IMG/VR virus record: IMGVR_UViG_2645727905_000013
Span: 1-19,014 of that record
Strand: one strand, 5' to 3'
Source of the DNA: a virus
Lineage: Duplodnaviria; Heunggongvirae; Uroviricota; Caudoviricetes
DNA: 19,014 nucleotides
The position numbers and the translations under genes were made by a program. The first letter of the stretch is position 1; every line of letters begins with the position of its first letter. The notes under the pieces are model-generated. The model was not told the origin of the DNA. It did no database searches and saw only the letters and a list, made by a program, of their open reading frames with translations. Shown piece by piece: positions 1,860-18,330 of this stretch.

Positions 1860-1874
1860 ATAAACTCCGTACAT

Positions 1875-1896
1875 AAAAAATCCCACCGGAGTGGGA
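1875..1896 (-). terminator. Possible weak intrinsic terminator/attenuator between tape-measure and DNA-circulation genes
   Basis: On the minus strand: 6-bp stem tcccac/gtggga with a 4-nt loop, followed immediately by a T6 run. Confidence 0.3.
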
Positions 1897-1919
1897 CTCA
1901 TTAACAGATTAATTTTTCA

Positions 1920-2717: not shown

Positions 2718-2723
2718 TGCCTC

Positions 2724-3623
2724 CTACAGGTTGGACAGCGTACCAAGCTGTGCCTGAACACGTTTATTCAGGCTGGCCTGTTTATTCATCTTCTGCTGGA
2801 TCTGATCGTAACCATCCTTCCCTTTATCGATCAGAGCATTGACCACCTGAAGGGTTTCGGCATCATCACCAAATATTGCCTTAAGTACACCTGTTCGCTT
2901 AACGTCGGTCAGTTTTCGCAGCTTTGCCAGTTGCCTGAACATGTTATCAAGACCGCCAAAACTCCCTTTGCCGTCAGTAAAATCGAGCTGCACTCCGAGT
3001 TTCTGGCGGGCCATAACTTTATTAACGTCCCTGATTTTCTTAACGCTTAATCCGGACTGGATAACTTTTCGCAGGGCATTACCTGCCGACTCCCCGTTCA
3101 TCCCCATCTGATCCATCATGACGCTGATGGGGGCAAGGCTCTGTGCAGCCTGAAGACCATCCTTGTTCACCATCTTCAGAACAGAACTGGTTTTAGTGAA
3201 GAAGGACAACATGTTGGTATCGTCAACGCCCAGATAAAACGCCTTCTGGATAGTGTCGAACAGCCCCATCATGTCTTCTGACGCCGTTCCGGTAGCATCC
3301 TGCATCTTTGCAGCAAACTCAGCAGCCGCTTCCGGTGTTTTTTTCAGTTGTACCGCAAGATAGGCTGTCGCTTTACCCACACCACCCAGAATGTTTTCTG
3401 CCGGGATCCCCTGACGCACCAGCATCTGCATCATGTTCTGGAAATCAGCCGTTGTACCGGGTAGCTGGTTACCCAGGCCAATAGCCAGTTTATTGATGTC
3501 CTGAAAGCGCTTTCCGACCTCACCGTTCGCATCCATCATGGCAACTTTCAGCCCGGTATCCATTTCCGCATAAAACAACGGAACCAGCGTATTCGACGGA
3601 ATGGTGTTAAAGCTTATCGTCAT
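2724..3623 (-). CDS. Tail tape measure protein, N-terminal segment (ends at in-frame amber codon)
   Basis: 299-aa alpha-helical, Gln/Lys/Ala-rich ORF located upstream of the DNA-circulation gene as in Mu-type tails. Minus-strand read across the junction is ctg tag gag gca atg. Confidence 0.55.
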   Translation of the reverse strand: MTISFNTIPSNTLVPLFYAEMDTGLKVAMMDANGEVGKRFQDINKLAIGLGNQLPGTTADFQNMMQMLVRQGIPAENILGGVGKATAYLAVQLKKTPEAAAEFAAKMQDATGTASEDMMGLFDTIQKAFYLGVDDTNMLSFFTKTSSVLKMVNKDGLQAAQSLAPISVMMDQMGMNGESAGNALRKVIQSGLSVKKIRDVNKVMARQKLGVQLDFTDGKGSFGGLDNMFRQLAKLRKLTDVKRTGVLKAIFGDDAETLQVVNALIDKGKDGYDQIQQKMNKQASLNKRVQAQLGTLSNL

Positions 3624-3785
3624 CGGTATTCACCTTTTTATTCACGCGCCGGATATCACCCGCTGCTTCACGGCGCAGCCAGTAGTTGTTCTCGTCAACA
3701 TTTCGCCCTTCGGCGGGCAAAAGGTCGCCGCGGGCAGGGTCAGGAACTGACCGCCCTTTAACAGGTTTGACAAACATGAGGATCC

Positions 3786-4139
3786 TCAGGAAGGAAGGGT
3801 TATTTCGGTGTGATGTTCGATATCGCCGTCAGGCCCGTTACCGGGCTCGAGATAATCAACATCAATCGCCAGCGTTTGCAGTTCATCCAGACTGTTCAGA
3901 TCATCCTGCTGGCGGGTATCGTCTTCGGTCAGCTCGCTGATGATCGAAAAATCGAACTGATAAATCAGCTCATGACGATTCAGATCCAGCAGCGTGCCGC
4001 CGTCATAGGTAATCGGGTTACCGCACGCTTCCGGGTTCCAGCCCAGCAGAGCCTTAAAGAGCATCTGCCGGATATCCGTTCCTTCTGACCATGCCACCAT
4101 ATCCAGGAAAGCTTTACGCTGGGAATTTAGTATCTGCAT
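3786..4139 (-). CDS. Endolysin remnant: lambda R-type N-terminus (about 22 aa) fused to unrelated acidic sequence
   Basis: MQILNSQRKAFLDMVAWSEGTD closely matches the recalled lambda R N-terminus MVEINNQRKAFLDMLAWSEGTD; the remainder does not resemble R. The gene sits immediately downstream of the holin, as R does. Confidence 0.4.
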   Translation of the reverse strand: MQILNSQRKAFLDMVAWSEGTDIRQMLFKALLGWNPEACGNPITYDGGTLLDLNRHELIYQFDFSIISELTEDDTRQQDDLNSLDELQTLAIDVDYLEPGNGPDGDIEHHTEITLPS

Positions 4140-4142
4140 AAA

Positions 4143-4469
4143 TTACTCCTTAGAGCCACCAAACTTGTTACCGATCACTCTCATTGCAGCCCCACGAATT
4201 GCATCGACACCAATCAGCCCAACACCGCCACCAATGGCAACAGAAAGAGATTTAGGCCATCCGACATACTCAAGAGCGGATGCAAAAGTCAGCGTCAGAG
4301 CACCACAGAGCAAAATCTCGAGCGTTTTTCGCTTCCACCCACCACCACCGCCAAAATAGGCAATGCGCAATCCAGCCATAACAATCGACATAATCACTGC
4401 GCCAAGAGGCGTATCTCCACGCCACCAGCTCTGGAACAACTCCAGCCAGGTATTTGGGTTATGAGGCAT
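4143..4469 (-). CDS. Holin, lambda S family (class I)
   Basis: 108 aa with hydrophobic helices and a charged C-terminus. Segment LRIAYFGGGGGWKRKTLEILLCGALTL parallels lambda S [24 protein letters not shown]. It lies directly upstream of the R-like ORF. Confidence 0.65.
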   Translation of the reverse strand: MPHNPNTWLELFQSWWRGDTPLGAVIMSIVMAGLRIAYFGGGGGWKRKTLEILLCGALTLTFASALEYVGWPKSLSVAIGGGVGLIGVDAIRGAAMRVIGNKFGGSKE

Positions 4470-4622
4470 TTGTAGTTATCTCTCACCTCGCCGATACAGG
4501 AGGTGTAAATTGAGGGAGTACCACGAACCGCAAATCAGAAGCGGAAACGTAAAAGAAGTCGAGCCAATGGATAAGTACTAGATAGACCAAGCCCAACGAA
4601 TACCAAGGCCCAGAAAAGACAA

Positions 4623-4645
4623 AACCCGCTCAATGGCGGGTTTAA
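4623..4645 (-). terminator. Intrinsic terminator hairpin upstream of holin (tR'-like candidate)
   Basis: Perfect 8-bp inverted repeat aaacccgc/gcgggttt with a 6-nt loop; on the minus strand it is followed by a T-rich tract (tgtcttttct). Confidence 0.4.
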
Positions 4646-4725
4646 GCTGTGTGGCGAAGTAACCACTCTTAACAGATTACAAGAATTTTTGCGGACCGCG
4701 TTAATGATTTTTAATCCCAAAGTCG

Positions 4726-4754
4726 TATTATTCGTTTTTTACTGTAGGAGTTAA
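4726..4754 (-). promoter_or_regulatory. Candidate sigma70 late promoter (pR'-like) reading toward the lysis genes
   Basis: Minus strand: TTAACT (-35), 17-nt spacer, ATAATA (-10). Located about 75-95 nt upstream of the hairpin terminator and about 250 nt upstream of the holin. Confidence 0.3.
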
Positions 4755-4759
4755 CAGGT
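4740..4759. promoter_or_regulatory. LexA (SOS) box-like motif TACTGT-N8-ACAG
   Basis: Sequence tACTGTaggagttaACAGgt has the conserved CTGT and ACAG arms at canonical 8-nt spacing, with an imperfect central region. It sits 10 nt upstream of the KAP NTPase ATG and overlaps the opposite-strand promoter candidate. Confidence 0.3.
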
Positions 4760-4766
4760 TTATATT

Positions 4767-5609
4767 ATGTTAGATACACTATCGTTCACTGAACGTGACG
4801 AGTTCCAACGAAGAAACATCGCTGAAAATATCATCAAGTTGCTAAAACCAGAGGCAGACATTTCACCACTGGTAATAGATGGCGCATGGGGAACAGGGAA
4901 ATCAGAATTTAGTATCAAACTGAAAAATCTCATTATTGAGCAAGAACCCGAATCTAAAGTTGTTTATATTGATGCCTTTAAAGGGGATCATGCAGAATCT
5001 CCATTACTTCTCATAACCTCTGCAATTGCCAGCATTTTGCCTGAGGAAGAAAAACAACACTTCATTAAGAGGTCTCTTCCTGCAATTCGATTTGGTTTAA
5101 AAACTGTACTAAAAGCTGGTGCAGGTTGGTTTTTACGACAGGAGGCTAGTGAAGTTGCCGAAGAATTCCAAGATGCGATGAAGAAAGCAAGCAATGCAGC
5201 AATAGATGGGACTATTGAAAGTTTGCTTGAAGACCATATGGAATCAGAGAAAAACATAAATTCACTTAAATCTTGCATCGAAAGTATTTCAGAAAATCAA
5301 AAGATAGTAATTATAATTGATGAATTAGATCGATGTAAGCCGAGTTTTTCAACAAATGTCATTGAAACAATAAAACACATTTTTGACATCAATAATGTCT
5401 TTTTTATTTTAGTTACAAACACAGAACAATTAAGAGCATCGATAAATCATATTTATGGTTATAGTATTAACTCACAAAAGTATCTTGACAAGTTTATAAA
5501 ATATACCATCACGCTTCCAGATACATGTTTGATAAATGGTCACGACGTATGTAAAGCCTCTGTTATATATTGGAATTACCTTGTAGAAAAAAACAAGATC
5601 ATTAAATGA
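4767..5609 (+). CDS. KAP-family P-loop NTPase, N-terminal part (Walker A and B present); gene appears frameshifted
   Basis: Walker A VIDGAWGTGKSEF (GxWGxGKS type) and Walker B IVIIIDELDRC (DELDRC) are the KAP NTPase signatures. AT-rich composition. Encoded on the opposite strand between Q and the lysis genes. Confidence 0.7.
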   Translation: MLDTLSFTERDEFQRRNIAENIIKLLKPEADISPLVIDGAWGTGKSEFSIKLKNLIIEQEPESKVVYIDAFKGDHAESPLLLITSAIASILPEEEKQHFIKRSLPAIRFGLKTVLKAGAGWFLRQEASEVAEEFQDAMKKASNAAIDGTIESLLEDHMESEKNINSLKSCIESISENQKIVIIIDELDRCKPSFSTNVIETIKHIFDINNVFFILVTNTEQLRASINHIYGYSINSQKYLDKFIKYTITLPDTCLINGHDVCKASVIYWNYLVEKNKIIK

Positions 5610-5757
5610 AATCAATAGCTTATCAGGTTATTTTATCCGTGATTTAATTCAACGAACCAACTTATCATTACGTGAAACACAAACATTTTCACGCAATCTT
5701 AACATTTTTCAACTGTTAAACGACAATGAAGACAACAGTAGTGATCGTTTTATAAAT

Positions 5758-6099
5758 ATGATCTTTGTCGTAGCTGTCTTCATACATTGCTTTGGTGACA
5801 AGGAAAAACTAAAACACGAAATTACCGCTGAATCTATATCTTATTTAGCAGACCTGCTTAAAATAAAAGAGATACCTTATTCTTATGAGATGAGTTCGAA
5901 AATCCCTAAAATATCAATTGTATTCTTTGGAATAATTAAAGACAGTATTACTCTTAATGAGCGATTTGCTCCTAAAAGTGATGAAGAACTAAAAAGATTC
6001 ACCAAAGTTTATACTGATTATGACCACCTAAATTTTTGGAGTACTACACCCAGAGAGTTATTGATAAAATATATCAATCAAATGTCATTCATTCAGTAA
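5758..6099 (+). CDS. Probable C-terminal continuation of the KAP NTPase gene in the +1 frame
   Basis: This frame is open from 5587 (just after a TAG at 5584-5586) through 6099, overlapping the end of the upstream ORF. Deleting one A from the A7 run (5587-5593) fuses the two ORFs into about 443 aa. The first ATG is only at 5758. Confidence 0.4.
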   Translation: MIFVVAVFIHCFGDKEKLKHEITAESISYLADLLKIKEIPYSYEMSSKIPKISIVFFGIIKDSITLNERFAPKSDEELKRFTKVYTDYDHLNFWSTTPRELLIKYINQMSFIQ

Positions 6100-6101
6100 A
6101 T

Positions 6102-6126
6102 AATACGCCCCTGCATGGGGCGTATT
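6102..6126. terminator. Bidirectional intrinsic terminator between convergent KAP moron and Q gene
   Basis: Perfect 10-bp stem aatacgcccc/ggggcgtatt with a 5-nt loop, flanked by T-rich tracts on both strands (tttattaaa on plus; ttattta on minus). Confidence 0.55.
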
Positions 6127-6129
6127 TTA

Positions 6130-6495
6130 TTAAACGTCCAAATCTAATGTTAGATCTAGCATGGAAAGGCAGCCATCAATAAATCCTTCGGCTAACTGTA
6201 TTTCTATACGTATCAATTTCTCATCCTTTCCACGCGCCTTTGCAATCTTACGCTTGGATATTCTGTATAAATAATGTGCCACAAGAAGCGAATGCTCATA
6301 AGGTCTTTTTTGCTTTAGACGAGCAAGACAACCTTCAATAATTAATGCATCACTATCCGAACAAGCCAAGCGTTTCTTGCTGGTATAGGGAAGAAGTCCC
6401 TTAAACCCAGCAGCTATAGGTGAATAATCAACACCAGAGTTATCACTCGCAGCCCATGCTCCCCAACGTTCAAGTATCATCTGAATATCACGCAT
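6130..6495 (-). CDS. Late-gene antitermination protein Q (QuuD / phage 82 Q-like family)
   Basis: MRDIQMILERWGAWAA...IAAGFKGL closely matches the recalled N-terminus of E. coli DLP12 QuuD. Start placed at the ATG at 6493-6495, which has an AGAAAGG SD; the ORF-track start codon at 6508-6510 is TTG. Confidence 0.75.
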   Translation of the reverse strand: MRDIQMILERWGAWAASDNSGVDYSPIAAGFKGLLPYTSKKRLACSDSDALIIEGCLARLKQKRPYEHSLLVAHYLYRISKRKIAKARGKDEKLIRIEIQLAEGFIDGCLSMLDLTLDLDV

Positions 6496-6512
6496 CACCT
6501 TTCTCCACAAAA

Positions 6513-7508
6513 TCAGGCCAGTACGCCAATTGCCAGCGCACGATCGATAAAACGAAATATCAGCTCCAGCTGAGAGCCATACTTCTCTTCAAATGCCACG
6601 GTATCCGCATGCAGCTCGTCGTGATGCTTTCTGCACAAAGGCAACACAAAGAGGTCATGCGCTTTTGTACCCATTCCACCCTGACCGTGGCCTATCAGAT
6701 GGTGGGGATCATCAGCAGGCTTTCCACAACATGCACACGGCTGTGTCTTAACCCAGCGCGTGTACTTTTCATTAACCCAGCGGCGGCTTTTTGGGCGTAA
6801 CATAAAAGACTCCGGCGACTCCGGATCCACTTTCAGCGCCAGCACCTTTTTCGCTTTATCCAGGATGATGCTGGTGGCAGGAACCGAAGGCACAAGGTCA
6901 CTTTCCCGGGTGACAGACGGCACAACAGGTTTCGGTAATCTCAGCGCCTTACGGGCTACGCTTTCAGGTAAGGCATCCGCCAGGTCATTACGAATCAGCC
7001 ACCAGCACAGTTCCGGCATTGTCACGGCATGGTTATCATCAAAATCGAGATCCCGACGGACTACAGACAACACCCAACGGGCACAGTTATCCGTTGCCAT
7101 TGATTCCAGCCGCTCCGTGAACTGATCACGTAACTGATTATCGCAGTGCCAGCACAGACGGATTGCGCCCGGCGCGTGTCGCATTGTGGTCATGTTCTCG
7201 CTGTGCCAGTCGGAATGAGGCCACTGGCAGCCTTTTTCACGAAGTAACCAGCTTTCAAGACATTCCACCCCACCAGCACGACGAATCACTGCCTCATTAC
7301 GGAACACGGCCCGAACGGCAGGATCATCCGCCAGCGGTTGTGATGCCGCCGGAACGGCACCACTGGCGAAAGATGAATAACGTTCCGGCTCAGGCTCCAG
7401 CAGGACACGCCCCTGCATAAACAGGGGCATCAGCTCTGAACCTGGCCTGAACAATACGATCCCCATACGCGGGGCAATTTCAGGGGTCAGTAGCGCTCTC
7501 ACGGTCAC
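6513..7508 (-). CDS. DUF968-like phage protein with C-terminal HNH/zinc-finger-like motif (YdfU-like)
   Basis: C-terminus CACCGKPADDPHHLIGHGQGG...CRKHHDELH has an HNH-type Cys/His pattern. It sits immediately upstream of Q, as ydfU does relative to quuQ in the Qin prophage (recalled). Confidence 0.5.
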   Translation of the reverse strand: MTVRALLTPEIAPRMGIVLFRPGSELMPLFMQGRVLLEPEPERYSSFASGAVPAASQPLADDPAVRAVFRNEAVIRRAGGVECLESWLLREKGCQWPHSDWHSENMTTMRHAPGAIRLCWHCDNQLRDQFTERLESMATDNCARWVLSVVRRDLDFDDNHAVTMPELCWWLIRNDLADALPESVARKALRLPKPVVPSVTRESDLVPSVPATSIILDKAKKVLALKVDPESPESFMLRPKSRRWVNEKYTRWVKTQPCACCGKPADDPHHLIGHGQGGMGTKAHDLFVLPLCRKHHDELHADTVAFEEKYGSQLELIFRFIDRALAIGVLA

Positions 7509-7509
7509 C

Positions 7510-8319
7510 TCAATGAACGGTATCGAGCAGCTTTAACAGCTCAGGGAATCGGGATTCGAAGAAATGCGGCTGCGTCTCGCGCGGATTTGCGGGACTGGTG
7601 ATGTTCTTGCCGAACATGCAGCCTTTCGCCGTCAGCGACCAGAATTTTTTGATGTTGTTAATCGCAGTGCGGCTGTATCGTTCACGTTGTTCAACGATCC
7701 CCAGCTTCGCCATCTGGTGATATGCCTGATTAGCTGTCAGGCGGATACCATACTGCTTCAGCAGTGCACTCAGTGACAGCGTGGGGCGGCTTGAGCCATC
7801 AGGCGCGTCAGCAGGAGCATCAATGGCATAGCGCGGTGCCAGATTCGGTAAGCCAACAGCCTCCTGGAGTTTCTGACAGGCACCAAGCACTGAAGAGTTA
7901 GACAGGTTTAACTCCCGGCGCATAAAGTCCAGCAGGATCACGCCAGCCTGCATCTTGTCAGCAGCCTGTCCGGATAATTTTTCCGGTGCGCTGGTTACCA
8001 TATCGAAAGTACGGATCACCTTCAGATGGAATGACGGGCTGATCCACATTGCATAGGCATACACCAGTTCCTTGCAGACATATGTTCCCCGTTCATTTCC
8101 CCCATGAATCACACTCACCGGGTCAACACCCAAATTCTGGGTGTTGGTCAATTCATGAACAAGCTCAACAGTTTGTTGGCTGGAAAGAAACTTTCCCGGC
8201 TCCTTGGTTCTGGCATTTGCACCAGATGCTACTGCTGCGCGATGCAGATCGTTCAGGCTGTAACGCCCATAAGCATCACGACGAACTTCAATACCATCAA
8301 TGACCATCAGATTATTCAT
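7510..8319 (-). CDS. KilA-N domain protein (antirepressor-like)
   Basis: N-terminal MVIDGIEVRRDAYGRYSLNDLHRAA... is typical of the KilA-N domain. Start placed at the ATG at 8317-8319, which has a GAGGAG SD about 8 nt upstream. Confidence 0.65.
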   Translation of the reverse strand: MNNLMVIDGIEVRRDAYGRYSLNDLHRAAVASGANARTKEPGKFLSSQQTVELVHELTNTQNLGVDPVSVIHGGNERGTYVCKELVYAYAMWISPSFHLKVIRTFDMVTSAPEKLSGQAADKMQAGVILLDFMRRELNLSNSSVLGACQKLQEAVGLPNLAPRYAIDAPADAPDGSSRPTLSLSALLKQYGIRLTANQAYHQMAKLGIVEQRERYSRTAINNIKKFWSLTAKGCMFGKNITSPANPRETQPHFFESRFPELLKLLDTVH

Positions 8320-8338
8320 ACTTCGTTTCTCCTCTTGA

Positions 8339-8728
8339 TCAGGCGGCTGCACCCGCCGTTTTCTCGTACTTACTGATAGTGATCTCGACCTTCCCTTCCG
8401 GGATAACCGGTCCCCACTCCACCAGCATTCTTTTCACCTGACTGTCGTCTTCCCACACACCCGCGTGGGTCAGGGCGTCAAACAGCGCCTTGTTATAGTT
8501 GTCCAGATCGCGGATCCGGTTATCCGGAGGAAACAACACGATCTCCACTGAAGCAGGTGCCGACGTTGGTTTTGGCAGACGACGTAACTGCTCAACTATT
8601 GCTGCACACGCTGCGCTCTGGAATTTGCGCCCCGCCGCGCTTATCAGGCTCTTACCTGCAAACGCCCCTTTGTTGGGGTGTCGCCAGTACGTGTTCACGC
8701 TGGGCGGGAAAGGCAGGATCAGCTTCAT
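8339..8728 (-). CDS. rusA: Holliday junction resolvase RusA
   Basis: 129 aa; ...PPSVNTYWRHPNKG...RDLDNYNKALFDALTHAGVWEDDSQV... parallels E. coli RusA (PPSNNRYYRH...[27 protein letters not shown]). Its ATG overlaps the stop of the upstream gene. Confidence 0.8.
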   Translation of the reverse strand: MKLILPFPPSVNTYWRHPNKGAFAGKSLISAAGRKFQSAACAAIVEQLRRLPKPTSAPASVEIVLFPPDNRIRDLDNYNKALFDALTHAGVWEDDSQVKRMLVEWGPVIPEGKVEITISKYEKTAGAAA

Positions 8729-9051
8729 ACTTTCAGGCCCCTCTCATGTAACCAGTGGGCTGCACGCAGCCTGGCGTTTTCCTCACCGGCAAGCAGTGAG
8801 CGGATAATCCCGACCGCCTCGCTGTCGTCGTCCTTCACCGCGGTATGAAGCGTTATCCCCCGGGCCACGCCACGCTTTATCGTGATGACGCCTTTTTTCT
8901 CCAGCGCACGAAGATGCTCCACCGCTGCATTCACCGAACGGTATCCCAGCATGGTTGCCACCTCCTGATTGGTTGGTGGGAAGCCACGTTCTTTCTGATA
9001 AGAAATCAGCATATCCAGCACCTGCTGCTGGCATTGAGTTAACGTCGTCAT
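8725..9051 (-). CDS. LexA N-terminal DNA-binding-domain-only protein (no S24 peptidase domain)
   Basis: MTTLTQCQQQVLDMLISYQKERGFPPTNQEVATMLGYRSVNAAVEHLRALEKKGVITIKRGVARGITL aligns with the LexA N-terminus ([68 protein letters not shown]). It retains an AGE linker motif but ends about 25 aa later. Start (ATG at 9049-9051) overlaps the upstream stop (TAATG). Confidence 0.65.
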   Translation of the reverse strand: MTTLTQCQQQVLDMLISYQKERGFPPTNQEVATMLGYRSVNAAVEHLRALEKKGVITIKRGVARGITLHTAVKDDDSEAVGIIRSLLAGEENARLRAAHWLHERGLKV

Positions 9052-9545
9052 TAAGCCCCCACGTAATTCCCTGACAGATACCACTCTTCACCCGATGCAG
9101 CGCGCTTGCTGCTTTTCCGTAAGCACCGCTCACGACGCGCCAGAAAATTGTTTCGTTCTGGCTGGGAGTGGCTTTCACGGAATGCCGCCATCCACACGGT
9201 TGCAGCACGACGAAATAAGCCCCTGGACTCCAGTTCTTCCGCCTGGCGGGCCAGGCACAAAATCACCCGCGGGTCGTTAGTGCCGACATAGAAATTGCGC
9301 ACAGGTCTGGTTTCACGAACTGGTTGCCGTTCCGCCTCCGGAGATATCTTTGTCTGGCGCGGGAAATGTCTGCGTGTATCCCCTTCACAACGGTGAGCCA
9401 CACGCCCACTCTGACGTAACTTGCTTGCTGACTGCAGAACGCGCTGCCGTGAGTAACCTGCAAAAGCATCAGCAATGTCTCCGGAAGTACCCCCTGGATG
9501 GGCTTCAATGAATTTCTGAACTTCATTCAAAAGACTCATAATCAC
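9051..9545 (-). CDS. Hypothetical regulator; C-terminal region PerC/ANR-like
   Basis: 164-aa ORF whose ATG overlaps the stop of the replication gene (ATGA). C-terminal ARQAEELESRGLFRRAATVWMAAF...RRERCL resembles the recalled PerC/Pch motif GLWRRAAxRW. The N-terminal half may be a winged helix. Confidence 0.4.
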   Translation of the reverse strand: MIMSLLNEVQKFIEAHPGGTSGDIADAFAGYSRQRVLQSASKLRQSGRVAHRCEGDTRRHFPRQTKISPEAERQPVRETRPVRNFYVGTNDPRVILCLARQAEELESRGLFRRAATVWMAAFRESHSQPERNNFLARRERCLRKSSKRAASGEEWYLSGNYVGA

Positions 9546-10483
9546 CCCCTGAATCCTGCCGGGATCTGGCTGTAGTCCACATTGTCGTAACTGGCTTTGA
9601 AGTACGGGTCTTCACGTTTTTCTGTGTGCGTGCTGACGGACGGCGATAAGCGCAGGGAAAGCTCATCCCATTTTTCCCGCAACTTCGACGGGCTGAGCAC
9701 GTTACGGCACCAGAACGGATCGCGGCTGACGCGGCTGTACATCTCGCAGATTTGTTTGTGAGTACGACCATCCTGCACACACATCAGGCGAATTTCGTTT
9801 GCCCAGGCTGTCCAGTTCGGTTCTTTGGGACGAATCACCTCGCCGTCACATTCGGCGGCCTGCTCGTACAGGGCGATGATTTTTTTCCAGAGCCACTGTG
9901 CGCAGGTCAAATCATCCTGCGTTCCCCACTGACGCTTTTTAGGGCTGAATACAACCGCATCAGGATGGCGAGTTAAAAAATCCTGTTCATCCGTCTGCGT
10001 GTCCGGTTGCGAAGCGTCCGGACGAGAAGTTTTTTTATCTGACGGATCATGTTTTGATTTTACTGACGGATCCCCGCCAGATTCTGACGGGTGAAAACCC
10101 GCTTTTTTGCCAGATTTCGACGCATCAAATTTTGACGGGTCAGATTTTGATGCGTCAGATTTTGACGGGTCAGAATCTGACAGTTGAGAAAATGCCGCTG
10201 CCTGAAGCTTCGCAACGTTAAGCTGATAAACATTCGACGCATTGCGGTTACCCTGGCGACGCGCCTTACGCGTTAACCAGCCTTCTGCTTCCAGCCGTGC
10301 GATAGCCGTTCTGACGGTACTCATCCCCGCGCCAATCTGGCGGGCAATGGTTTCAATTGATGGCCAGCACACACCTTCGTCATTACTGAAATCAGCCAGG
10401 CGGGCCATAATTGCCACGCTGGATAACTTCATGCCTGATGCAGCGCAACCATCCCATACATAGCCGGTTAATTTAGTACTCAT
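9542..10483 (-). CDS. Phage replication initiation protein (lambda O-like role), N-terminal wHTH, internal repeat linker
   Basis: N-terminal wHTH-like segment SIETIARQIGAGMSTVRTAIARLEAEGWL. A repetitive linker (SDSDPSKSDASKSDPSKFDASKSG) is encoded by tandem 15-bp DNA repeats. Located downstream of cro and the cII-position genes. Confidence 0.6.
   Translation of the reverse strand: MSTKLTGYVWDGCAASGMKLSSVAIMARLADFSNDEGVCWPSIETIARQIGAGMSTVRTAIARLEAEGWLTRKARRQGNRNASNVYQLNVAKLQAAAFSQLSDSDPSKSDASKSDPSKFDASKSGKKAGFHPSESGGDPSVKSKHDPSDKKTSRPDASQPDTQTDEQDFLTRHPDAVVFSPKKRQWGTQDDLTCAQWLWKKIIALYEQAAECDGEVIRPKEPNWTAWANEIRLMCVQDGRTHKQICEMYSRVSRDPFWCRNVLSPSKLREKWDELSLRLSPSVSTHTEKREDPYFKASYDNVDYSQIPAGFRG
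10038..10185. repeat. Iteron-like tandem direct repeats (candidate replication origin) inside the replication initiator gene
   Basis: Four or more tandem 15-bp units (caaattttgacgggt, cagattttgatgcgt, cagattttgacgggt, cagaatctgacagtt) plus degenerate upstream copies, with an adjacent T-rich tract (agtttttttatc, 10029-10040). Confidence 0.55.
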
Positions 10484-10652
10484 GACCGACCTCTATTTCC
10501 CTGAATTTACGACGAAACTGTTCGAGCGGACTGAAGCATTCATGCTCATAACCTTCGCGGAGGTAGATAACCCGTTGTGTTTCCGGCTCCCAACGAATGA
10601 CTCTGACGGGCACTCCGTAGTGATCTTTGAACCAGCGGTTAACTTGTCGCAA
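10473..10652 (-). CDS. Small ORF (59 aa, TTG start) overlapping the 3' end of ORF 10493..10831; alternatively the displaced C-terminus of that gene
   Basis: AAGGAG SD 8 nt upstream of TTG; translation [59 protein letters not shown] is protein-like. Its stop overlaps the start region of the replication gene. Below the 60-aa ORF-track cutoff. Confidence 0.3.
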
Positions 10653-10831
10653 AGGACTGTCTCCTTCTGCCGGTTGAAATCACCCACAGCCCACTCTGCA
10701 AAGCTGTGGGTTACAATTTCCCTGTCACCTGGTACATTCACTGCATAGCAATATTCCACCTTCGCTTTTCCACCCGGTACAGGAAGCGCAATCAGTTGCG
10801 AGCGACGGTAGTGTGTTGTTAAACTGTTCAT
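10493..10831 (-). CDS. Hypothetical protein (C-terminal third looks non-protein-like; possible frameshift)
   Basis: ATG overlaps the stop of the upstream gene (ATGA at 10828-10831), which supports the start. A second frame with a strong SD carries protein-like sequence over its 3' part. Confidence 0.35.
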
Positions 10832-11442
10832 GCGTTAGTTTCTCCACAACCAGAAGCAATCGACGCCACGACGCCCGGAGCTGCACACTCGCGGGCGTCA
10901 TTACTTTCTGAAATGCAAAAAATTTTGTAGACAAGTGCTGCATGCTCCTGCAGCTTCGAAATTGAGAGATACAGCTCGTCGTTAATTGCTGTCTTCTCAT
11001 GCGGTTCCACTACACCGTCTTCAATTGCTGAACGAATCTGTTTTGAATAACTGCCGATCTGTTCAATGACTTCCAGCAGGCGCTGGTTAATATCGGCGTT
11101 GTCCACATCCTCGACGTCAGGAAGAGACACAAAGACGCCATTTGCAGACTGCGCCACAGCGTCAGCAATGAAGTGAGTTCCACCAGCACGTTGCAAAATC
11201 ATTGCCCATCCCAGCGGGAAAATCTGATCGCCATCTGCACGAAGGCGGTTAAATAATGCGTTCTCTGTTACATCCAGCCAGTCAGCTGCTTCAGCGTAAC
11301 CACCCGGCAACGCTGCGATAGTTTTTCTGACAGCTTTCACGTACCACTCAGGCTGTTTTTCTACTTTCCAGTGATGCTTACCCACGGTTAGCCTCATCGT
11401 TCTGTGGTTTCTGTTAATCGATTTATCCATTAGATTTTTCAT
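10828..11442 (-). CDS. Hypothetical early protein in the cII/YdaT position downstream of cro
   Basis: Long ORF directly following cro. Start uncertain: ATGs at 11440-11442 and 11428-11430 overlap or abut the cro stop; the ORF-track start at 11499 would overlap cro by 77 nt. Function not recognised. Confidence 0.4.
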
Positions 11443-11623
11443 AAAGCTCAGGTTTAAATGGCAACCGTCCGCAAGTTCTATATGCAGCTTCTGCTGCACG
11501 TCCTTTTGGAATTAACTGGCCCGGACGGTTTCGCCACTGATAAACGGCTTCAGTTGTTATGCCGAAAAAAGCAGCAACTTTCTCAATACTGCCGAAGTAG
11601 CTTTCGATATCGTCAGTTGTCAT
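11423..11623 (-). CDS. cro: Cro-like HTH regulator
   Basis: 66-aa HTH protein (GITTEAVYQWRNR) transcribed divergently from the CI-like repressor, with a GGAGGG SD upstream. Confidence 0.7.
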   Translation of the reverse strand: MTTDDIESYFGSIEKVAAFFGITTEAVYQWRNRPGQLIPKGRAAEAAYRTCGRLPFKPELYEKSNG

Positions 11624-11720
11624 ACGCCCTCCAAACTAAGTTTTATTAGATGCTAATTACAAATCTATCTTTGGTCAACAAAAACTAAGATTACTTAGTA
11701 ATTAAAGAAATGGTGCTCCT
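11624..11720. promoter_or_regulatory. cI-cro intergenic operator/promoter region (OR-like)
   Basis: 97-bp AT-rich divergent intergenic region containing the palindrome ACTAAGattaCTTAGT (11684-11699) and a further ACTAAG copy (11635-11640). A possible minus-strand promoter is TTGACC, 17 nt, TAGCAT. Confidence 0.5.
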
Positions 11721-12347
11721 ATGGAAACGGTTGGTCAGCGTATAAAAGCTCTGAGAAGAGTAACCAGAACGTCCCAGAAAGAATTGGGTAAATTTTGTGG
11801 AGTAAGCGACGTTGCTGTGGGGTACTGGGAGAAAGACATCAATACCCCTGGTGGGGAGGCACTTTCGAAATTAGCGAAGTTCTTCAATACGTCAATAGAT
11901 TACATTCTTTATGGTGCTGAGTTTGAAGGCAAACTCGTCACAAACATGCGCAGAGTTCCTGTAATATCGTGGGTTCAGGCTGGGCAGTTTACTGAGTGCA
12001 GGGCAGCAGAAGTGTTTAGTGAAGTGGACAAGTGGGTAGATACATCATTAAAGATTGGTGATAACTCATTTGCATTAGAGGTTAAAGGTGACTCCATGAC
12101 TAACCCTAATGGCCTCCCAACAATACCAGAAGGCGCAACAGTGATTGTAGATCCAGATGCAGAACCTCGTCATGGAAAAATAGTCATCGCTCGACTTGAT
12201 GGAACAAACGAAGCTACAGTAAAAAAATTAGTCATCGATGGCCCTCAAAAGTTTTTAGTGCCATTAAATCCTCGGTATCCCAACATCCCTATCAATGGTA
12301 ATTGCCTTATCATTGGTGTAGTCAAAGGAGTTCAATACGAACTCTAA
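11721..12347 (+). CDS. cI: CI-like prophage repressor (HTH-XRE N-domain plus S24 LexA-type autopeptidase C-domain)
   Basis: N-terminal HTH (QKELGKFCGVSDVAVGYWEKD), a putative Ala-Gly cleavage site (VQAGQF), catalytic Ser in GDSM and Lys in TVKKL. Confidence 0.85.
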   Translation: METVGQRIKALRRVTRTSQKELGKFCGVSDVAVGYWEKDINTPGGEALSKLAKFFNTSIDYILYGAEFEGKLVTNMRRVPVISWVQAGQFTECRAAEVFSEVDKWVDTSLKIGDNSFALEVKGDSMTNPNGLPTIPEGATVIVDPDAEPRHGKIVIARLDGTNEATVKKLVIDGPQKFLVPLNPRYPNIPINGNCLIIGVVKGVQYEL

Positions 12348-12357
12348 GACCTCTCTT

Positions 12358-12430
12358 TTCTAACTAAGGCACCGAACTAAGAAAAGTTTGGTGTTTTCTC
12401 TTGCCATAATAACTAAGTTAAGTTAGATTT
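12358..12430 (+). promoter_or_regulatory. Candidate OL/pL-like region downstream of cI (repeated ACTAAG motifs; possible promoter)
   Basis: ACTAAG at 12363-12368, 12377-12382 and 12413-12418, the same hexamer as in the cI-cro operators. Possible promoter TTGCCA (12401-12406), 17 nt, TAGATT (12424-12429). Confidence 0.25.
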
Positions 12431-12534
12431 TATGTCAAAGATAACGAACAGGCAGGACGCGCACGAAGTAGCCCGCCCGGTACGTACGAAGACCGGGATG
12501 ATTCGTTAGCGGATGATTTCAGTGGAGAGAATAG

Positions 12535-12843
12535 ATGAATGAGCAGGATTTGAAGCATGTGATCGCATTGTTGCTGGAAGACGCTAAACGTTTGCAGCAG
12601 ATAGAGCCAAATGCAGGCACTGAGGCCCGTATTTTGTTAGCAAAACAGGCATTAAAGACTTGCGGGGCGCAAGACCCTGATCGAACCAAGTTCATGAATT
12701 TCATGGCTAACACGATCACCCCACTGCCATGCAATGGAGAGAGGGTTAGCCGTGTTTATCACGACACAATGGTTAAGGCATTAAGAATCGAGCTTGATGG
12801 GCTTAGGCGTAAGATCGTGATGAACAAAATCGTTGCCAACTAA
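12535..12843 (+). CDS. Hypothetical immunity-region protein
   Basis: 102-aa ORF with a GGAGAG SD at appropriate spacing; first gene downstream of cI. No family recognised. Confidence 0.4.
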   Translation: MNEQDLKHVIALLLEDAKRLQQIEPNAGTEARILLAKQALKTCGAQDPDRTKFMNFMANTITPLPCNGERVSRVYHDTMVKALRIELDGLRRKIVMNKIVAN

Positions 12844-13122
12844 GGAAGCAGACGGAAGTAAGCATGCGCTTTGTTCAAATTTGCAGACAAATATATTTGC
12901 GTCAACACCAGCACTGTTAGCAATGGAAAAAGTTTGATCAAGGATTTGTTGGCAGTTCATTGTGCTTTTGAGGATATATCCCTCTGGAATCAGTCTGCAG
13001 CAGCTATCGTCAGACTCTTTGATTGTTTTCTGGTACAGAAAGTTAAGCATTAATTCTTCAAATTTTTTGGTCTGTTCGGCTGTTGCTTCAAACAGACGAA
13101 CGTGAACATAAAACTGGTTCAT
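12781..13122 (-). CDS. Hypothetical protein encoded antisense to the early-left operon (immunity-region moron candidate)
   Basis: ORF with an AGGAAA SD 5 nt upstream of the ATG at 13120-13122 (protein MNQFYVHVRLFEATAEQ...). Relatively AT-rich. Convergent with 12535..12843, overlapping it by 63 nt. Confidence 0.35.
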   Translation of the reverse strand: MNQFYVHVRLFEATAEQTKKFEELMLNFLYQKTIKESDDSCCRLIPEGYILKSTMNCQQILDQTFSIANSAGVDANIFVCKFEQSACLLPSASLVGNDFVHHDLTPKPIKLDS

Positions 13123-13401
13123 TAGATTTCCTTGCTGGCTGTGTGAGAACTCCAGCATACCACCGAGCCTGAAGTGGTGAAAAGACAGGCAATAGTTTCA
13201 TTGCTGTGTGTAGTCTTGGCGGTACCAGCTTGTACCCTTGCTTCCGGCTGGTACCGTCCTTTTTACAAAACAGAGAAGAGTATCACCGGACGACGGGCTC
13301 ATAACCCAATCCATCCGGGCGGCTGCCACCGCAGGTGTTCTTCTCTGTTTTGTGGAGAAACCAACCGACCTTGCAGGGTCGATATGATGAGGAGCAGCAA
13401 A

Positions 13402-13764
13402 ATGGCTAGCGAACGCAGTACTGATGTGCAGGCATTTATCGGGGAGCTGGACGGCGGCATATTTGAAACCAAAATCGGCGCTGTTCTCAGTGAAGTCGCT
13501 TCCGGTGTGATGAACACAAAAACCAAAGGGAAAGTCTCACTCAACCTGGAAATCGAACCATTTGATGAGAACCGTGTGAAAATCAAACACAAACTCTCAT
13601 ATGTTCGCCCGACTAACCGCGGGAAAATTTCCGAAGAAGACACCACCGAAACGCCGATGTATGTCAATCGCGGTGGTCGCCTGACTATTCTGCAGGAAGA
13701 CCAGGGACAATTACTGACTCTTGCCGGTGAACCTGACGGAAAACTCCGCGCAGCAGGTCGTTAA
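13402..13764 (+). CDS. Hypothetical phage protein (possibly YfdP-like)
   Basis: Strong GAGGAG SD 8 nt upstream of the ATG at 13402. The ORF-track N-terminal extension from 13174 is Cys/Arg-rich and implausible. Confidence 0.45.
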   Translation: MASERSTDVQAFIGELDGGIFETKIGAVLSEVASGVMNTKTKGKVSLNLEIEPFDENRVKIKHKLSYVRPTNRGKISEEDTTETPMYVNRGGRLTILQEDQGQLLTLAGEPDGKLRAAGR

Positions 13765-13829
13765 TATCGTTTTTAATAAACTGATTATTTATCTCATCAC
13801 TGAATATCTTTATATAGTGAGGACTTATT

Positions 13830-14654
13830 ATGTCTCAGAACTTAGACGCAACCGCAATTAATCAAATCCATGCCCTTATTTCTGCTCAGGGTGTTAATGA
13901 AATTATCAGTAAGATTGGTGCCGATGCTGTGGCATTGCCTGAGAATTTCCGCATTCATGATCTGGAAAAATTTAATTTAAATCGCTTCCGTTTCCGAGGT
14001 GCGCTTTCCACTGCAAGCATCGATGACTTTACCCGTTATTCTAAAGATCTTGCAGATGAAGGCACCCGCTGCTTTATCGATGCTGATAATATGCGTGCCA
14101 TCAGTGTGCTTAACCTGGGCACTATTGATGAACCAGGTCACGCAGATAACACCGCCACTCTCAAACTGAAAAAGGCAGCACCGTTCTCTGCTCTGTTGTC
14201 TGTTAACGGCGAGCGTAACTCCCAGAAGTCACTGGCAGAATGGATTGAAGACTGGGCCGACTACCTTGTGGGCTTTGATGCTAATGGTGACGCTATTCAG
14301 GCAACAAAAGCGGCTGCGGCTGTCCGTAAAATCACGATTGAAGCAAACCAGACCGCTGATTTTGAAGATAATGACTTCAGCGGCAAACGCTCCCTGATGG
14401 AGTCTGTCGAAGCGAAGACCAAAGATATTATGCCAGTGGCATTTGAATTTAAATGCGTTCCGTTTGAAGGTCTGAAAGAACGTCCGTTTAAATTACGTCT
14501 CAGCATTATCACTGGCGATCGTCCTGTACTGGTTCTGCGCATTATTCAGCTGGAAGCAGTGCAGGAAGAAATGGCTAACGAATTTCGTGATCTGCTTGTT
14601 GAGAAATTCAAAGACAGCAAAGTAGAAACCTTTATTGGTACTTTCACCGCCTGA
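13830..14654 (+). CDS. Hypothetical phage protein, 274 aa (YfdQ-like by size and context)
   Basis: Well-formed ORF with a GAGGA SD. Size and position next to an HD-domain gene match the yfdQ-yfdR arrangement recalled from the E. coli CPS-53 prophage. Confidence 0.5.
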
Positions 14655-14666
14655 TTTCATTACTGC

Positions 14667-14688
14667 AAATGCCCCTGCGGGGGCATTT
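14667..14688 (+). terminator. Strong hairpin (possible partial terminator) between the 274-aa gene and the HD-domain gene
   Basis: Perfect 9-bp stem aaatgcccc/ggggcattt with loop tgcg; the downstream T-tract is short (ttt). Confidence 0.3.
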
Positions 14689-14782
14689 ATGGAGACGTAA
14701 TTAACTCAATAATCGCCGGATGGTAAGGGCTTCTTTTTACCAAAATTCAGTGCGGTGCAGCGCAAATAACGTGGAGAACAAA

Positions 14783-15331
14783 ATGTCATTTATTAAAACT
14801 TTTTCCGGGAAGCATTTTTATTATGACAAGATAAATAAAGACGACATCGTGATTAACGATATCGCGGTTTCCCTTTCAAATATCTGTCGCTTTGCAGGAC
14901 ATCTTTCACACTTCTACAGTGTCGCCCAGCATGCGGTGCTTTGCAGCCAGCTGGTGCCACAGGAATTTGCTTTTGAAGCATTAATGCATGATGCAACAGA
15001 AGCTTATTGCCAGGACATCCCCGCTCCACTGAAACACCTTCTTCCTGACTATAAACGGATGGAAGAAAAAATAGATGCCGTAATCCGTGAGAAATACGGG
15101 TTACCCCCGGTTATGAGCACGCCCGTGAAATATGCCGATCTCATCATGCTGGCAACCGAACGCCGCGATCTCGGGCTTGATGATGGCTCTTTCTGGCCTG
15201 TACTGGAAGGCATCCCGGCAACAGAGATGTTCAACGTGATTCCACTGGCACCGGGCCATGCCTACGGGATGTTTATGGAACGCTTTAAAGAGCTACATAA
15301 GATACATAAACAATCCAGACAGCGAAATTAA
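14783..15331 (+). CDS. HD-domain phosphohydrolase (YfdR-like 5'-deoxynucleotidase family)
   Basis: His...HD pattern (RFAGH, AQHAV, LMHDATEAY). Start placed at the ATG at 14783 with a GGAGAA SD; about 182 aa. Confidence 0.65.
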   Translation: MSFIKTFSGKHFYYDKINKDDIVINDIAVSLSNICRFAGHLSHFYSVAQHAVLCSQLVPQEFAFEALMHDATEAYCQDIPAPLKHLLPDYKRMEEKIDAVIREKYGLPPVMSTPVKYADLIMLATERRDLGLDDGSFWPVLEGIPATEMFNVIPLAPGHAYGMFMERFKELHKIHKQSRQRN

Positions 15332-15359
15332 CTAGTGAAATAGTTTTGTAGCAAAAGAA

Positions 15360-15620
15360 ATGAGGTTATCAAAAATGCTTCAAATGCTGACACTTGAGGA
15401 ATGGGCTACGGAAAAATACAGAAGTAATCCTCCAAGTGTGTCCACATTGCGTCGTTATGCTAAGCAGAATTTATTTTGTCCACCGGCAATGAAACAAGGT
15501 CGACTATGGCGAGTGCGTGAGGACGCAGAGTTAGTTGGGGAATTAGTTACTCCTGTCATCAAGAAAAGTGATTCTATTATTCTACAAAGGATTTTAAGTA
15601 ATGGCAGCCAGACCACGTAA
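15360..15620 (+). CDS. xis: Excisionase (lambda Xis-like)
   Basis: LTLEEWATEKYRSNPPSVSTLRRYAKQNLFCPPAMKQGRLWRV parallels lambda Xis (YLTLQEWNARQRRPRSLETVRRWVRECRIFPPPVKDGREYLF). Overlaps the integrase start by 20 nt. Start may be the internal ATG at 15375 or 15384. Confidence 0.7.
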   Translation: MRLSKMLQMLTLEEWATEKYRSNPPSVSTLRRYAKQNLFCPPAMKQGRLWRVREDAELVGELVTPVIKKSDSIILQRILSNGSQTT

Positions 15621-16728
15621 AAATAATGTTTCAGTCCCGAACTTGTATCCGCTCTATAGCAGAAAAGTAAATAAAGTCTATTGGCGATATAAGCATCCAG
15701 TGACCGGGAAGTTTCATTCTTTGGGCACAAACGAAGCTGAAGCCATTGCTATTGCCACTGAGGCCAATACACGCCTGGCTGAGCAAAGAACCCGGCAGAT
15801 TCTGGCTATCAGTGACAGGATCGCAACCAGCAAAGGAAAAGCGATAACAACATCAACATGGTTAGACCGCTACCAGGCCATCCAGGATGACAGGCTGAAA
15901 AGTGGTGATATAAGACTCAACACCTATAAGCAGAAAGCCAAACCAGTATCCTTGCTCAGGGAACGAGCAGGAATGAAATTGATTTCAGCTGTTGATGTCA
16001 GGGATATAGCACAATTGCTTGACGAGTATATCGCTGCCGGGCAACCGAGAATGGCCCAAGTTGTAAGGTCTGTATTGATTGATGTGTTTAAGGAAGCACA
16101 GCACTATGGCGAAGTTCCGCCAGGGTATAACCCTGCTCTTGCGACGAAGCAACCCAGAAGGAAAATTACCCGTCAACGCCTCAGCCTGGAAGAATGGCAA
16201 AAAATCTTTGATATCGCAGATGCCAGTCATCGTTATATGGGAAATGCCATGCTGTTAGCACTGGTTACTGGCCAGCGGTTAGGTGATATTTCGCGTATGA
16301 AATTTAGCGATATTTGGGATGATCATCTTCACGTCATTCAGGAAAAGACCGGGAGCAAAATCGCCATCCCGCTTTCTCTTCGCCTCAATGCGATTAACTG
16401 GAGTTTACGCGATGTAGTATCCCGCTGCCGTGACTATGCAGTCAGCCCATACCTTGTACATTTTTTCCGTACGACTTCACAGGCTGAACGTGGCGCACAG
16501 GTTAAATCCAATACATTGACGATGAATTTCAGTAAAGCGAGGGATTTTGCAGGAATTGACTGGGGTGATGGCTCACCCGCAACATTCCATGAACAAAGGT
16601 CTTTATCTGAACGTCTGTACAAAGAACAGGGGTTAGACACACAAAAACTACTTGGTCATAAAACGCAACAACAAACCGATCGTTATCATGACGATCGCGG
16701 CAAAGGATGGAGCAAAGTTGCGTTGTGA
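15601..16728 (+). CDS. int: Tyrosine site-specific integrase, lambda Int family
   Basis: 375 aa. N-terminal arm-binding region (VPNLYPLYSRK...HPVTGKFHSLG) and C-terminal catalytic region (TFHEQRSLSERLYKEQ...LLGHKTQQQTDRYHDDRG) parallel lambda Int (PPNLYIRNNG..., TFHELRSLSARLYEKQ...LLGHKSDTMASQYRDDRG). Confidence 0.9.
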   Translation: MAARPRKNNVSVPNLYPLYSRKVNKVYWRYKHPVTGKFHSLGTNEAEAIAIATEANTRLAEQRTRQILAISDRIATSKGKAITTSTWLDRYQAIQDDRLKSGDIRLNTYKQKAKPVSLLRERAGMKLISAVDVRDIAQLLDEYIAAGQPRMAQVVRSVLIDVFKEAQHYGEVPPGYNPALATKQPRRKITRQRLSLEEWQKIFDIADASHRYMGNAMLLALVTGQRLGDISRMKFSDIWDDHLHVIQEKTGSKIAIPLSLRLNAINWSLRDVVSRCRDYAVSPYLVHFFRTTSQAERGAQVKSNTLTMNFSKARDFAGIDWGDGSPATFHEQRSLSERLYKEQGLDTQKLLGHKTQQQTDRYHDDRGKGWSKVAL

Positions 16729-16976
16729 AAATTTAAGCGTCCCAACGCCACCTTGAACTTCTCACCACACATGAAAAAGAACCAAACTGTTCGCTTTGAG
16801 CGAAAGGCGGACGTCATGAGACGCGTATAACATATATTGTAAATATAAGGTTCGATTATTTGCTTTCTTAACGTAAAATAAGTATGGAATGGTCTTGCTT
16901 ACGTAAGGTCTTTTAAGTTATATCTAGTAGTTATGATTTTAAATAGGTCTTTCGTGCTAATAAATAAGGTGGTTGC
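16729..16976. other. Probable attachment-site / prophage boundary region (core not identified)
   Basis: Non-coding AT-rich segment immediately downstream of int with a marked compositional shift. Contains ttacgtaa-type palindromes (16870-16910). Confidence 0.3.
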
Positions 16977-17897: not shown

Positions 17898-18330
17898 CAT
17901 TTAAATTTATCAATACGTTATTCGCAATCTATTAATATGAAATAAGGTACAATTGGCGGGCATGACAAATGTCCGCTTCTGGCACGGAGCAGACCCAAGC
18001 AAGGCCATTAGGTCTGGTGTGAGCGAAGAACAGACGTTACAGTGGAGTTAGAATCTGATTGGTTTTCACAATACATCTAAGTGCATTGAGATAAGAAATG
18101 AATTACATCCGGTCAAACCCCAATCGACGCTTTATGGAAAGTATGGCAAAACGATGAAAACGTTCTGCCTTGTGCTGATTTATTTCATAAAACTGATGAG
18201 AAGCCCCATATATCTATATCTGGTGAAACTGGCTTCTAATTTCCCCCAAAAGCTTAATATTGAATTGAAGCCATTATTGAAATTGTCATATTTAAAGTAT
18301 ATTGAAGTTGATGCGAAAAAACAAACTTTT

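Follow-up and report, generated by a model that had tools for sequence, protein, structure and literature searches.

The 19,014-nucleotide (nt) window analysed here (positions 1 to 19,014 of the IMG/VR virus record IMGVR_UViG_2645727905_000013, Caudoviricetes) carries a lambdoid prophage of the SfII/SfIV/e14/CPS-53 type, very common in E. coli and Shigella, with its replication module. Sequence and structure comparisons identify the minus-strand gene at 9542-10483 as a replication initiator; on this evidence, one protein of the lambda O family is the sole replication factor encoded by the phage module. The repeat region inside this gene is likely to be the replication origin. The C-terminal tail of the protein is common to host DnaT and probably lets the phage borrow the host loader DnaC. 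The full model, in which a loader-less module relies on an iteron-bound initiator whose DnaT-type tail docks the host DnaB-DnaC complex through DnaC, is proposed with moderate confidence. The elements of the gene on which it draws are listed below (bp, base pairs; aa, amino acids; ORF, open reading frame).

9542-10483, minus strand: replication initiator gene, lambda O family, 'solo' type; intact ORF of 313 aa
10190-10483, minus strand: N-terminal winged-helix DNA-binding domain (aa 1-98), presumed iteron reader
10111-10185: tandem iteron array of four to five 15-bp units (GACCCGTCAAAATCT / GACGCATCAAAATCT, coding strand), recognized by Tandem Repeats Finder, repeat search, core enrichment and codon constraint
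10040-10093: three spaced degenerate cores, 10085-10093 (CACCCGTCA) and 10064-10072 plus 10040-10048 (GATCCGTCA), coding strand
10015-10039: T7/A7 run (10030-10036) and 10-bp palindrome CGTCCGGACG (10015-10024), just 3' of the final iteron on the coding strand
9644-9994, minus strand: globular C-domain (aa 164-280), homologous by BLASTP to that of lambda O and confidently modelled by AlphaFold2
9545-9583, minus strand: C-terminal tail NVDYSQIPAGFRG (aa 301-313), common to host DnaT; proposed docking peptide for DnaC or DnaB-DnaC

The initiator and its iterons

PHROG 391 ('replication initiation O-like') covers the whole protein (E 1e-135), which is 97-99% identical to the 'O protein/primosomal protein' of phages SfII and SfIV. 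At the N-terminus, the winged-helix family HTH_36 covers residues 23-70 (Pfam, E 4e-11). A profile search for replication domains, which the sequence-only reading had named as a check of its initiator assignment, therefore agrees with that assignment at the N-terminus and over the full length; the match of the C-domain is to lambda O itself and comes from BLASTP (lambda O residues 187-270 with initiator residues 182-277, E 4e-26). Because the C-domain aligns in this way, the parallel with lambda is partly one of true homology, although the N-domain belongs to a family other than the Phage_rep_O of lambda. Pfam, NCBIfam and PDB sequence searches return no match for the C-terminal half, and DnaD_N scores 19.4 bits on the initiator against a Pfam cut-off of 27. 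The same C-domain occurs in PHROG 2514 (E 3e-29), where the name 'DnaD-like helicase loader' is an annotation and not a tested function. The literature reached holds no binding, replication or host-dependence data for this protein.

An AlphaFold2 model, built from an input alignment of 60 homologues, predicts a confident winged helix at the N-terminus, which is also the only fold recognized when the model is searched against the PDB. It is followed by a disordered linker of residues 102-161, exactly those encoded by the repeats, and by a helical C-domain of residues 164-280 (predicted local distance difference test score about 90). The tail beyond the C-domain is modelled with low confidence and is predicted to be disordered.

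Tandem Repeats Finder describes the array at 10111-10174 as 4.3 copies of period 15 (81% matches), and also as 2.1 copies of period 30 (88% matches). A separate repeat search adds degenerate copies at 10040-10058 and 10063-10092. On the coding (minus) strand the units read GAC CCG TCA AAA TCT and GAC GCA TCA AAA TCT, translating to DPSKS and DASKS, and the peptide of the array is S-D-S-DPSKS-DASKS-DPSKF-DASKS. For the 9-nt core GAYSCRTCA, 1.23 occurrences are expected in the window and nine are found, a count that none of 200 shuffles reaches; seven of the nine fall inside 10040-10171. The total of seven cores on the coding strand counts two slightly relaxed copies; four are in tandem (10163-10171, 10148-10156, 10133-10141 and 10118-10126) and the other three are the spaced, degenerate copies listed above, giving successive spacings of 15, 15, 15, 33, 21 and 24 nt. 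The peptide encoded by the spaced cores, GGDPSV.SK.DPS, is nearly invariant among 60 homologues.

Four or more tandem 15-bp repeats with degenerate flanking copies had been claimed for this gene from the letters alone, and the repeat finder, the repeat search and the core enrichment all confirm them, as reading the coding strand confirms the DPSKS/DASKS translation. The claimed lambda-like placement of the repeats also holds: the repeats lie between the DNA-binding and C-terminal domains, and the annotated iterons of lambda are the equivalent codons of O.

Origin DNA or peptide linker

Comparison with related genes supports the view that the repeats are DNA-level elements. The linkers of 77 distinct homologues, which come from many genera of enterobacteria, contain the core (median 4, maximum 7 copies), and only three further copies are found beyond the linker in the genes of all 77. 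The spacing of the cores is kept across genera (15, 15, (15), 33/48, 21, 24). The serine of the D[PA]S motif is encoded by TCA in 281 of 300 instances (94%) and never by AGY or TCC; TCA accounts for 23% of the serine codons elsewhere in the same initiator genes, and a conserved serine of the DNA-binding domain, taken as a control, is encoded by six codons. Initiators that have another N-domain but the same C-domain or tail carry different repeats at the same position, namely five 23-nt units with internal dyad symmetry (L065), 22-nt units (L077) and units 24/42 nt apart (phage cdtI). Since periods of 22-23 nt are not multiples of three, the repeats of L065 and L077 are not peptide repeats.

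Some observations nevertheless weigh against the repeats being an origin. A period of 15 bp is divisible by three, and this allele taken alone therefore permits a repeat at the protein level, and the number of iterons differs in rare close alleles. The neighbouring A/T tract is short and its AT-richness only moderate. The period, the copy-number differences between near-identical alleles and the predicted disorder of the linker would fit a slippage-prone, low-complexity linker, with the true origin elsewhere in the prophage. This explanation is quite improbable, because it leaves unaccounted for the fixed synonymous sites, the spacing conserved across genera, the 22-23-nt periods in the homologous linkers of other initiator types and the precedent of lambda. 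It also fits poorly with the allele frequencies: the full array is found in clusters of 5414 and 117 members, and the shortened alleles in clusters of 87, 6, 3 and 1.

One allele that appears repeat-less (P0019, locus L086) carries an in-frame deletion of 117 bp that takes out the tandem iterons along with the wing of the DNA-binding domain. The sites 10116-10125 and 10233-10242 are perfect direct repeats of the 10-nt sequence TTCGACGCAT, and recombination between these two copies explains the deletion. The allele is probably dead. Deletion mutants of lambda that have lost the origin (ori-minus) arise in the same way. Such close alleles were considered as a refutation of the origin and set aside, since P0019 has also lost the wing and all alleles of this kind are rare. 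The sequence-only reading had itself held that repeats absent or variable in close homologues, in a protein of a non-replicative family, would speak against an origin. Variation in copy number is indeed seen; the protein, however, is a member of a replicative family, and the full array is present in the common allele.

The T-rich tract that had been described next to the iterons is real but modest. The palindrome adjoins the T7 run just past the last core, and the lowest GC content per 40-nt window, 35%, falls at 10020-10059. This segment (10015-10039) is inferred to be a candidate unwinding region.

Proposed helicase recruitment without a loader gene

Two further features of the window bear on the way in which the helicase would be obtained.

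9051-9545, minus strand: PerC-like gene in the slot of lambda P (Pfam PerC, E 3e-8; PHROG 1324)
9400-9617: mosaic block of 218 bp that spans the initiator tail and the first part of the PerC-like gene, 97% identical to phages with a different initiator body

Searches with DnaC, DnaB and lambda P (tblastn) find no homologue in the 19-kb window, and Pfam scans of all its sizeable ORFs find no DnaC, DnaB or lambda P family. The statement that no P- or DnaC-like gene follows the initiator, and that the PerC-like ORF comes next, is thus upheld by both methods. A 456-aa ORF at 531-1901 was considered as a DnaB-like helicase and proved to be a DNA-circularisation/tail protein. The complete 39.7-kb genome of SfIV, a UV-inducible and plaque-forming phage, has the same module and no loader or helicase gene, and the same loader-less module is found in 48 distinct genome loci.

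The sequence-only reading had left two options, an incomplete module or another route to the host helicase. The first does not hold, because the viable SfIV lacks a loader in the same module and the 48 loci repeat the arrangement; the second is favored by the DnaT-type tail. A decayed remnant that has lost its loader gene is hardly credible here. Its one support is that this prophage is defective elsewhere, with lysis and head genes deleted, whereas the initiator ORF is intact and the order of initiator and PerC-like gene is identical in viable SfIV, in SfII and in thousands of E. coli genomes.

The initiator ends in ...SQIPAGFRG and E. coli DnaT in ...SEPDSQIPPGFRG, with eight of nine residues identical at the extreme ends of both proteins (the DnaT query was checked against PDB 9ZBT and the K-12 genome). 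A sister allele, 81% identical overall, ends in RCVNHISEPDTEIPPGFRG, of which 14 of 20 residues are identical to DnaT (E 9e-8). The motif is kept in all close orthologues of DnaT, and in orthologues only 30-50% identical it persists as (I/V)PxGF(R/K)(G/D/S). The likeness stops there: hhalign of the initiator with a DnaT alignment pairs 16 tail columns and nothing else, the DNA-binding three-helix domain of DnaT (PF17948) gives no Pfam match in the initiator even at E 10, and BLASTP finds no similarity to the N-terminal oligomerisation domain of DnaT outside the tail. Membership of the DnaT family with its globular domain was therefore rejected, as Pfam, NCBIfam and PDB searches gave nothing and the profile comparison aligns the tail alone. 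What the two proteins have in common, as judged from these alignments, is a short linear motif on a flexible end.

The link between tail and loader comes from a survey of 80 genome loci and further phage records. The surveyed initiators are mosaics, in which several N-domains, at least four C-domains and several tail classes occur in many combinations. The GFRG tail is found on at least four unrelated C-domain scaffolds (the lambda O type, Phg_2220_C, the cdtI type and the DnaT domain PF17948), and the block at 9400-9617 occurs with another initiator body in cdtI, in Stx2c phages and in Ayreon. Tails of the DW type (...TDWIYGVDL in lambda O, HWNSPEAWENTL and related forms) have a Phage_lambda_P gene directly after them without exception, in 14 distinct cases (lambda, nine genome loci and four further contigs), the contigs including initiators with a DnaT-like globular domain. 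An intact P gene follows the GFRG tail in none of 48 distinct genome loci (Fisher p = 1e-10 against the DW loci), and tblastn with DnaC, DnaB and lambda P finds no homologue in any of these GFRG-tail loci.

The GFRG tail occurs in two settings. In Rac (YdaU-YdaV), Gifsy-1, the 75/02 Stx phage, vB_EcoS-666R9 and SPN3UB, a DnaC homologue begins 2-7 nt past the stop codon; these homologues share 47-51% identity with E. coli DnaC and stand beside initiator bodies of different kinds. The chromosome of E. coli has the same layout, with dnaC directly after dnaT. In the present window, SfIV, cdtI, SPN1S, HannyBb, ST11-OXA245phi3.2, Tritos and the 48 genome loci, the tail occurs with no loader. The 19-aa tail RCVNHISEPDTEIPPGFRG is identical in the DnaC-paired 75/02 Stx phage and the solo phages HannyBb and Tritos. 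One initiator with a variant tail, ...DIPEGFNQ..., is also followed by a DnaC homologue. Because the helicase is the same throughout while the class of the tail covaries with the family of the loader, the partner of the tail would be the loader.

In the proposed mechanism, the N-domain of the initiator would bind the iterons inside its own gene and assemble an O-some-like complex. The A/T run beside them would then melt, helped by transcription from the early promoter, and the flexible GFRG tail would dock the host DnaB6-DnaC6 complex through DnaC. The tail would thus do the combined job of the lambda O tail and P; if it docks DnaB-DnaC in this way, the phage can dispense with a loader gene and is expected to require host dnaC. 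A broader proposal, offered tentatively, is that (I/V)PxGFRG is a portable DnaC-docking module and that a tail code (GFRG for DnaC, DW for lambda P) decides how a phage origin obtains the host helicase.

Several findings count against this role of the tail. The tail is only about 8-20 residues long, so its likeness to DnaT could in principle be convergent, and the survey sample is not phylogenetically independent. A 2026 preprimosome paper, which describes the mechanism of DnaB/DnaC recruitment by DnaT as unknown, suggests that the N-domain of DnaT, not the tail, may recruit DnaB/DnaC. In one locus (L092), a P-like ORF (4707-5171) without the N-terminal ~100 residues stands 300 nt beyond the gene of a GFRG-tailed initiator; this ORF may be the remnant of a loader decaying after a tail swap. 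Finally, the WxxIW tail class (19 loci) also has no loader and is left unexplained by the tail-loader rule.

These WxxIW tails (...RWNAIWKEQAQR... / ...AWAGIWQQAAEQAA...) occur on two different C-domains with no P or DnaC gene after them (L012, L014, L015, L017, L018, L020, L021, L035, L042, L052, L059, L061, L066, L069, L071-L073, L076 and L079) and are concentrated in Providencia, Proteus, Yersinia, Rahnella, Ewingella and Buttiauxella. The idea that they mimic the DnaT tails of Yersinia and Proteus was rejected, as divergent DnaT orthologues all keep GFRG-type tails.

Two other accounts accept the repeats as origin and assign the tail differently. In the first, the tail docks PriA, PriB or the pocket that receives the SSB tail, and loading runs via the PriA restart pathway. 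DnaT does partner PriA and PriB, papers on DnaT leave the partner of its tail undefined, and the pattern acidic-x-IP-x-GF loosely resembles the SSB tail, DDDIPF. The contacts described in cryo-electron microscopy structures are, however, those of the helical C-domain of DnaT with PriA and of its linker with PriB, and none is described for residues 155-179. Covariation of the tail with the family of the neighbouring loader would also go unexplained, so that this route appears unlikely.

The second account has the helicase loaded as in iteron plasmids, with DnaA, transcription or the C-domain recruiting DnaB-DnaC and the tail serving oligomerisation, turnover or regulation. Loader-less iteron plasmids do exist, and removal of the C-terminal region of DnaT reportedly alters its oligomerisation. 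Yet no DnaA box (TTATCCACA, up to one mismatch) lies within 9542-10483; the nearest is ~650 bp from the iterons, and seven boxes found against 4.7 expected amount to no enrichment. Nor can the C-domain alone make P dispensable, because its versions with a DW tail always come with P. Loading of this kind is accordingly given little credence.

Should docking of DnaB-DnaC through DnaC be correct, the hand-over of DnaB-DnaC by DnaT to a restart fork would run via the last ~10-20 residues of DnaT, and dnaT-dnaC would be a domesticated initiator-loader cassette of the Rac/Gifsy type. The association of tail and loader bears both on the loading of DnaB by loader-less lambdoid phages and on the recruitment of DnaB-DnaC by DnaT. 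Provided that the peptide does dock DnaC, the host dependence of temperate phages could be predicted from it, and it could serve as a peptide inhibitor of replication restart.

Related systems and prophage context

The closest relative in organization is lambda O with its origin (ori-lambda). In both, the initiator gene carries its iterons in the stretch that joins the DNA-binding domain to the C-domain, the C-domains are homologous, and the gene comes after cro and cII in the rightward early operon. They differ in the N-domain (HTH_36 here, Phage_rep_O in lambda), in the sequence of the iterons and their period (15 bp here), in the tail (...IPAGFRG here, ...TDWIYGVDL in lambda) and in the P gene, which does not follow the initiator here. 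Origins inside O-type genes are classical, and an origin within an initiator gene is in itself an ordinary finding. What appears to be new is the variant that combines a DnaT-type tail with the absence of a loader, together with the tail-loader rule; the literature searched contained nothing on the DnaT tail, on its sharing with initiators or on tail class as a predictor of the loader. Loader-less lambdoid modules are reportedly described by Weigel and Seitz (2006).

The Rac (YdaU-YdaV), Gifsy-1, SPN3UB and 75-02 Stx modules also combine an ...IPxGFRG initiator tail with a lambdoid early operon. Unlike the present module, these Rac/Gifsy-type modules encode their own DnaC homologue (an IstB/DnaC-like ATPase) directly downstream, and their initiator bodies differ. 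E. coli DnaT has the same conserved C-terminal peptide and is likewise a GFRG-tailed protein directly before DnaC in dnaT-dnaC, whereas the initiator has no detectable N-domain or DNA-binding domain of DnaT. DnaT is targeted to forks by PriA/PriB; the initiator is proposed to be targeted to the origin by the iterons. Many phage-like initiators of 250-540 aa (L084 2479-3018 / 1739-2476; P0277-P0390) have a true PF17948 domain and a GFRG or DW tail, which suggests a common origin of DnaT and the C-terminal halves of phage initiators.

DopC, an O-like protein with the C-terminal domain of DnaT, is encoded beside a P-like gene (DopE), and the O-P pair has been likened to DnaT-DnaC (Brezellec et al. 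2017, PMC5509034). DopC resembles the initiator in being an HTH_36 O-like protein with a DnaT-related C-terminus. It differs in having the globular domain of DnaT, no iterons and a P-like partner, where the initiator has a DnaT-like tail only, iterons and no partner gene.

The Rep proteins of plasmids pSC101, F, P1 and RK2 are winged-helix initiators that act on direct repeats and use host DnaB-DnaC with no loader of their own. The origins of these plasmids are separate from the rep gene and make use of DnaA boxes; no such box was found within 9542-10483.

The initiator gene is present in 2725 of 5426 complete E. coli genomes. The DNA here shares 97-99% identity with several phages of E. coli as well as with the Shigella phages SfII and SfIV. 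The PGAP annotation names the gene only 'helix-turn-helix domain-containing protein', and annotation pipelines label some related initiators 'primosomal protein I'. The assignment as an initiator that carries an origin would therefore correct the annotation of a gene found in about half of complete E. coli genomes. In the early operon, cI is divergent and is followed by cro, the cII/CP76-like gene, a 112-aa ORF and the initiator, and then by genes for PerC-like, LexA-like, RusA, KilA-N, DUF968 and Q proteins. The upstream genes, which place the initiator in the rightward early transcript, are as follows.

10493-11623, minus strand: upstream early genes, comprising the 112-aa ORF (PHROG 1170, 10493-10831), the cII/CP76-like gene (10828-11499) and cro (11423-11623)

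The 112-aa ORF (minus strand) has no Pfam match, and many otherwise near-identical E. coli prophages carry a DUF4222 gene instead. The prophage itself is defective. Near 4067-4076 (within window positions 1-4500) the holin region is joined to DNA matching SfIV 7320-7848 (tail genes), which means that the endolysin, spanin, terminase, portal and head genes are deleted, and the region of the sheath, tube and tape measure (1847-3549) is shortened or replaced. The interval from Q to the holin contains, on the opposite strand, a KAP-family P-loop NTPase (4767-5609, plus strand, E 6e-65) and a 113-aa ORF of no family (5758-6099, plus strand), which look like moron or defence cargo. Among the surveyed loci, three labelled Chryseobacterium, Vagococcus and a Bacillota metagenome-assembled genome (L047, L048 and L074, respectively) carry the enterobacterial prophage module at 45-78% protein identity, probably through assembly contamination or mis-binning. 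Just past the integrase of the present prophage, a SMEK-domain protein (16977-17897, plus strand, E 2e-24) is encoded by a gene that probably lies outside the prophage or at its edge.

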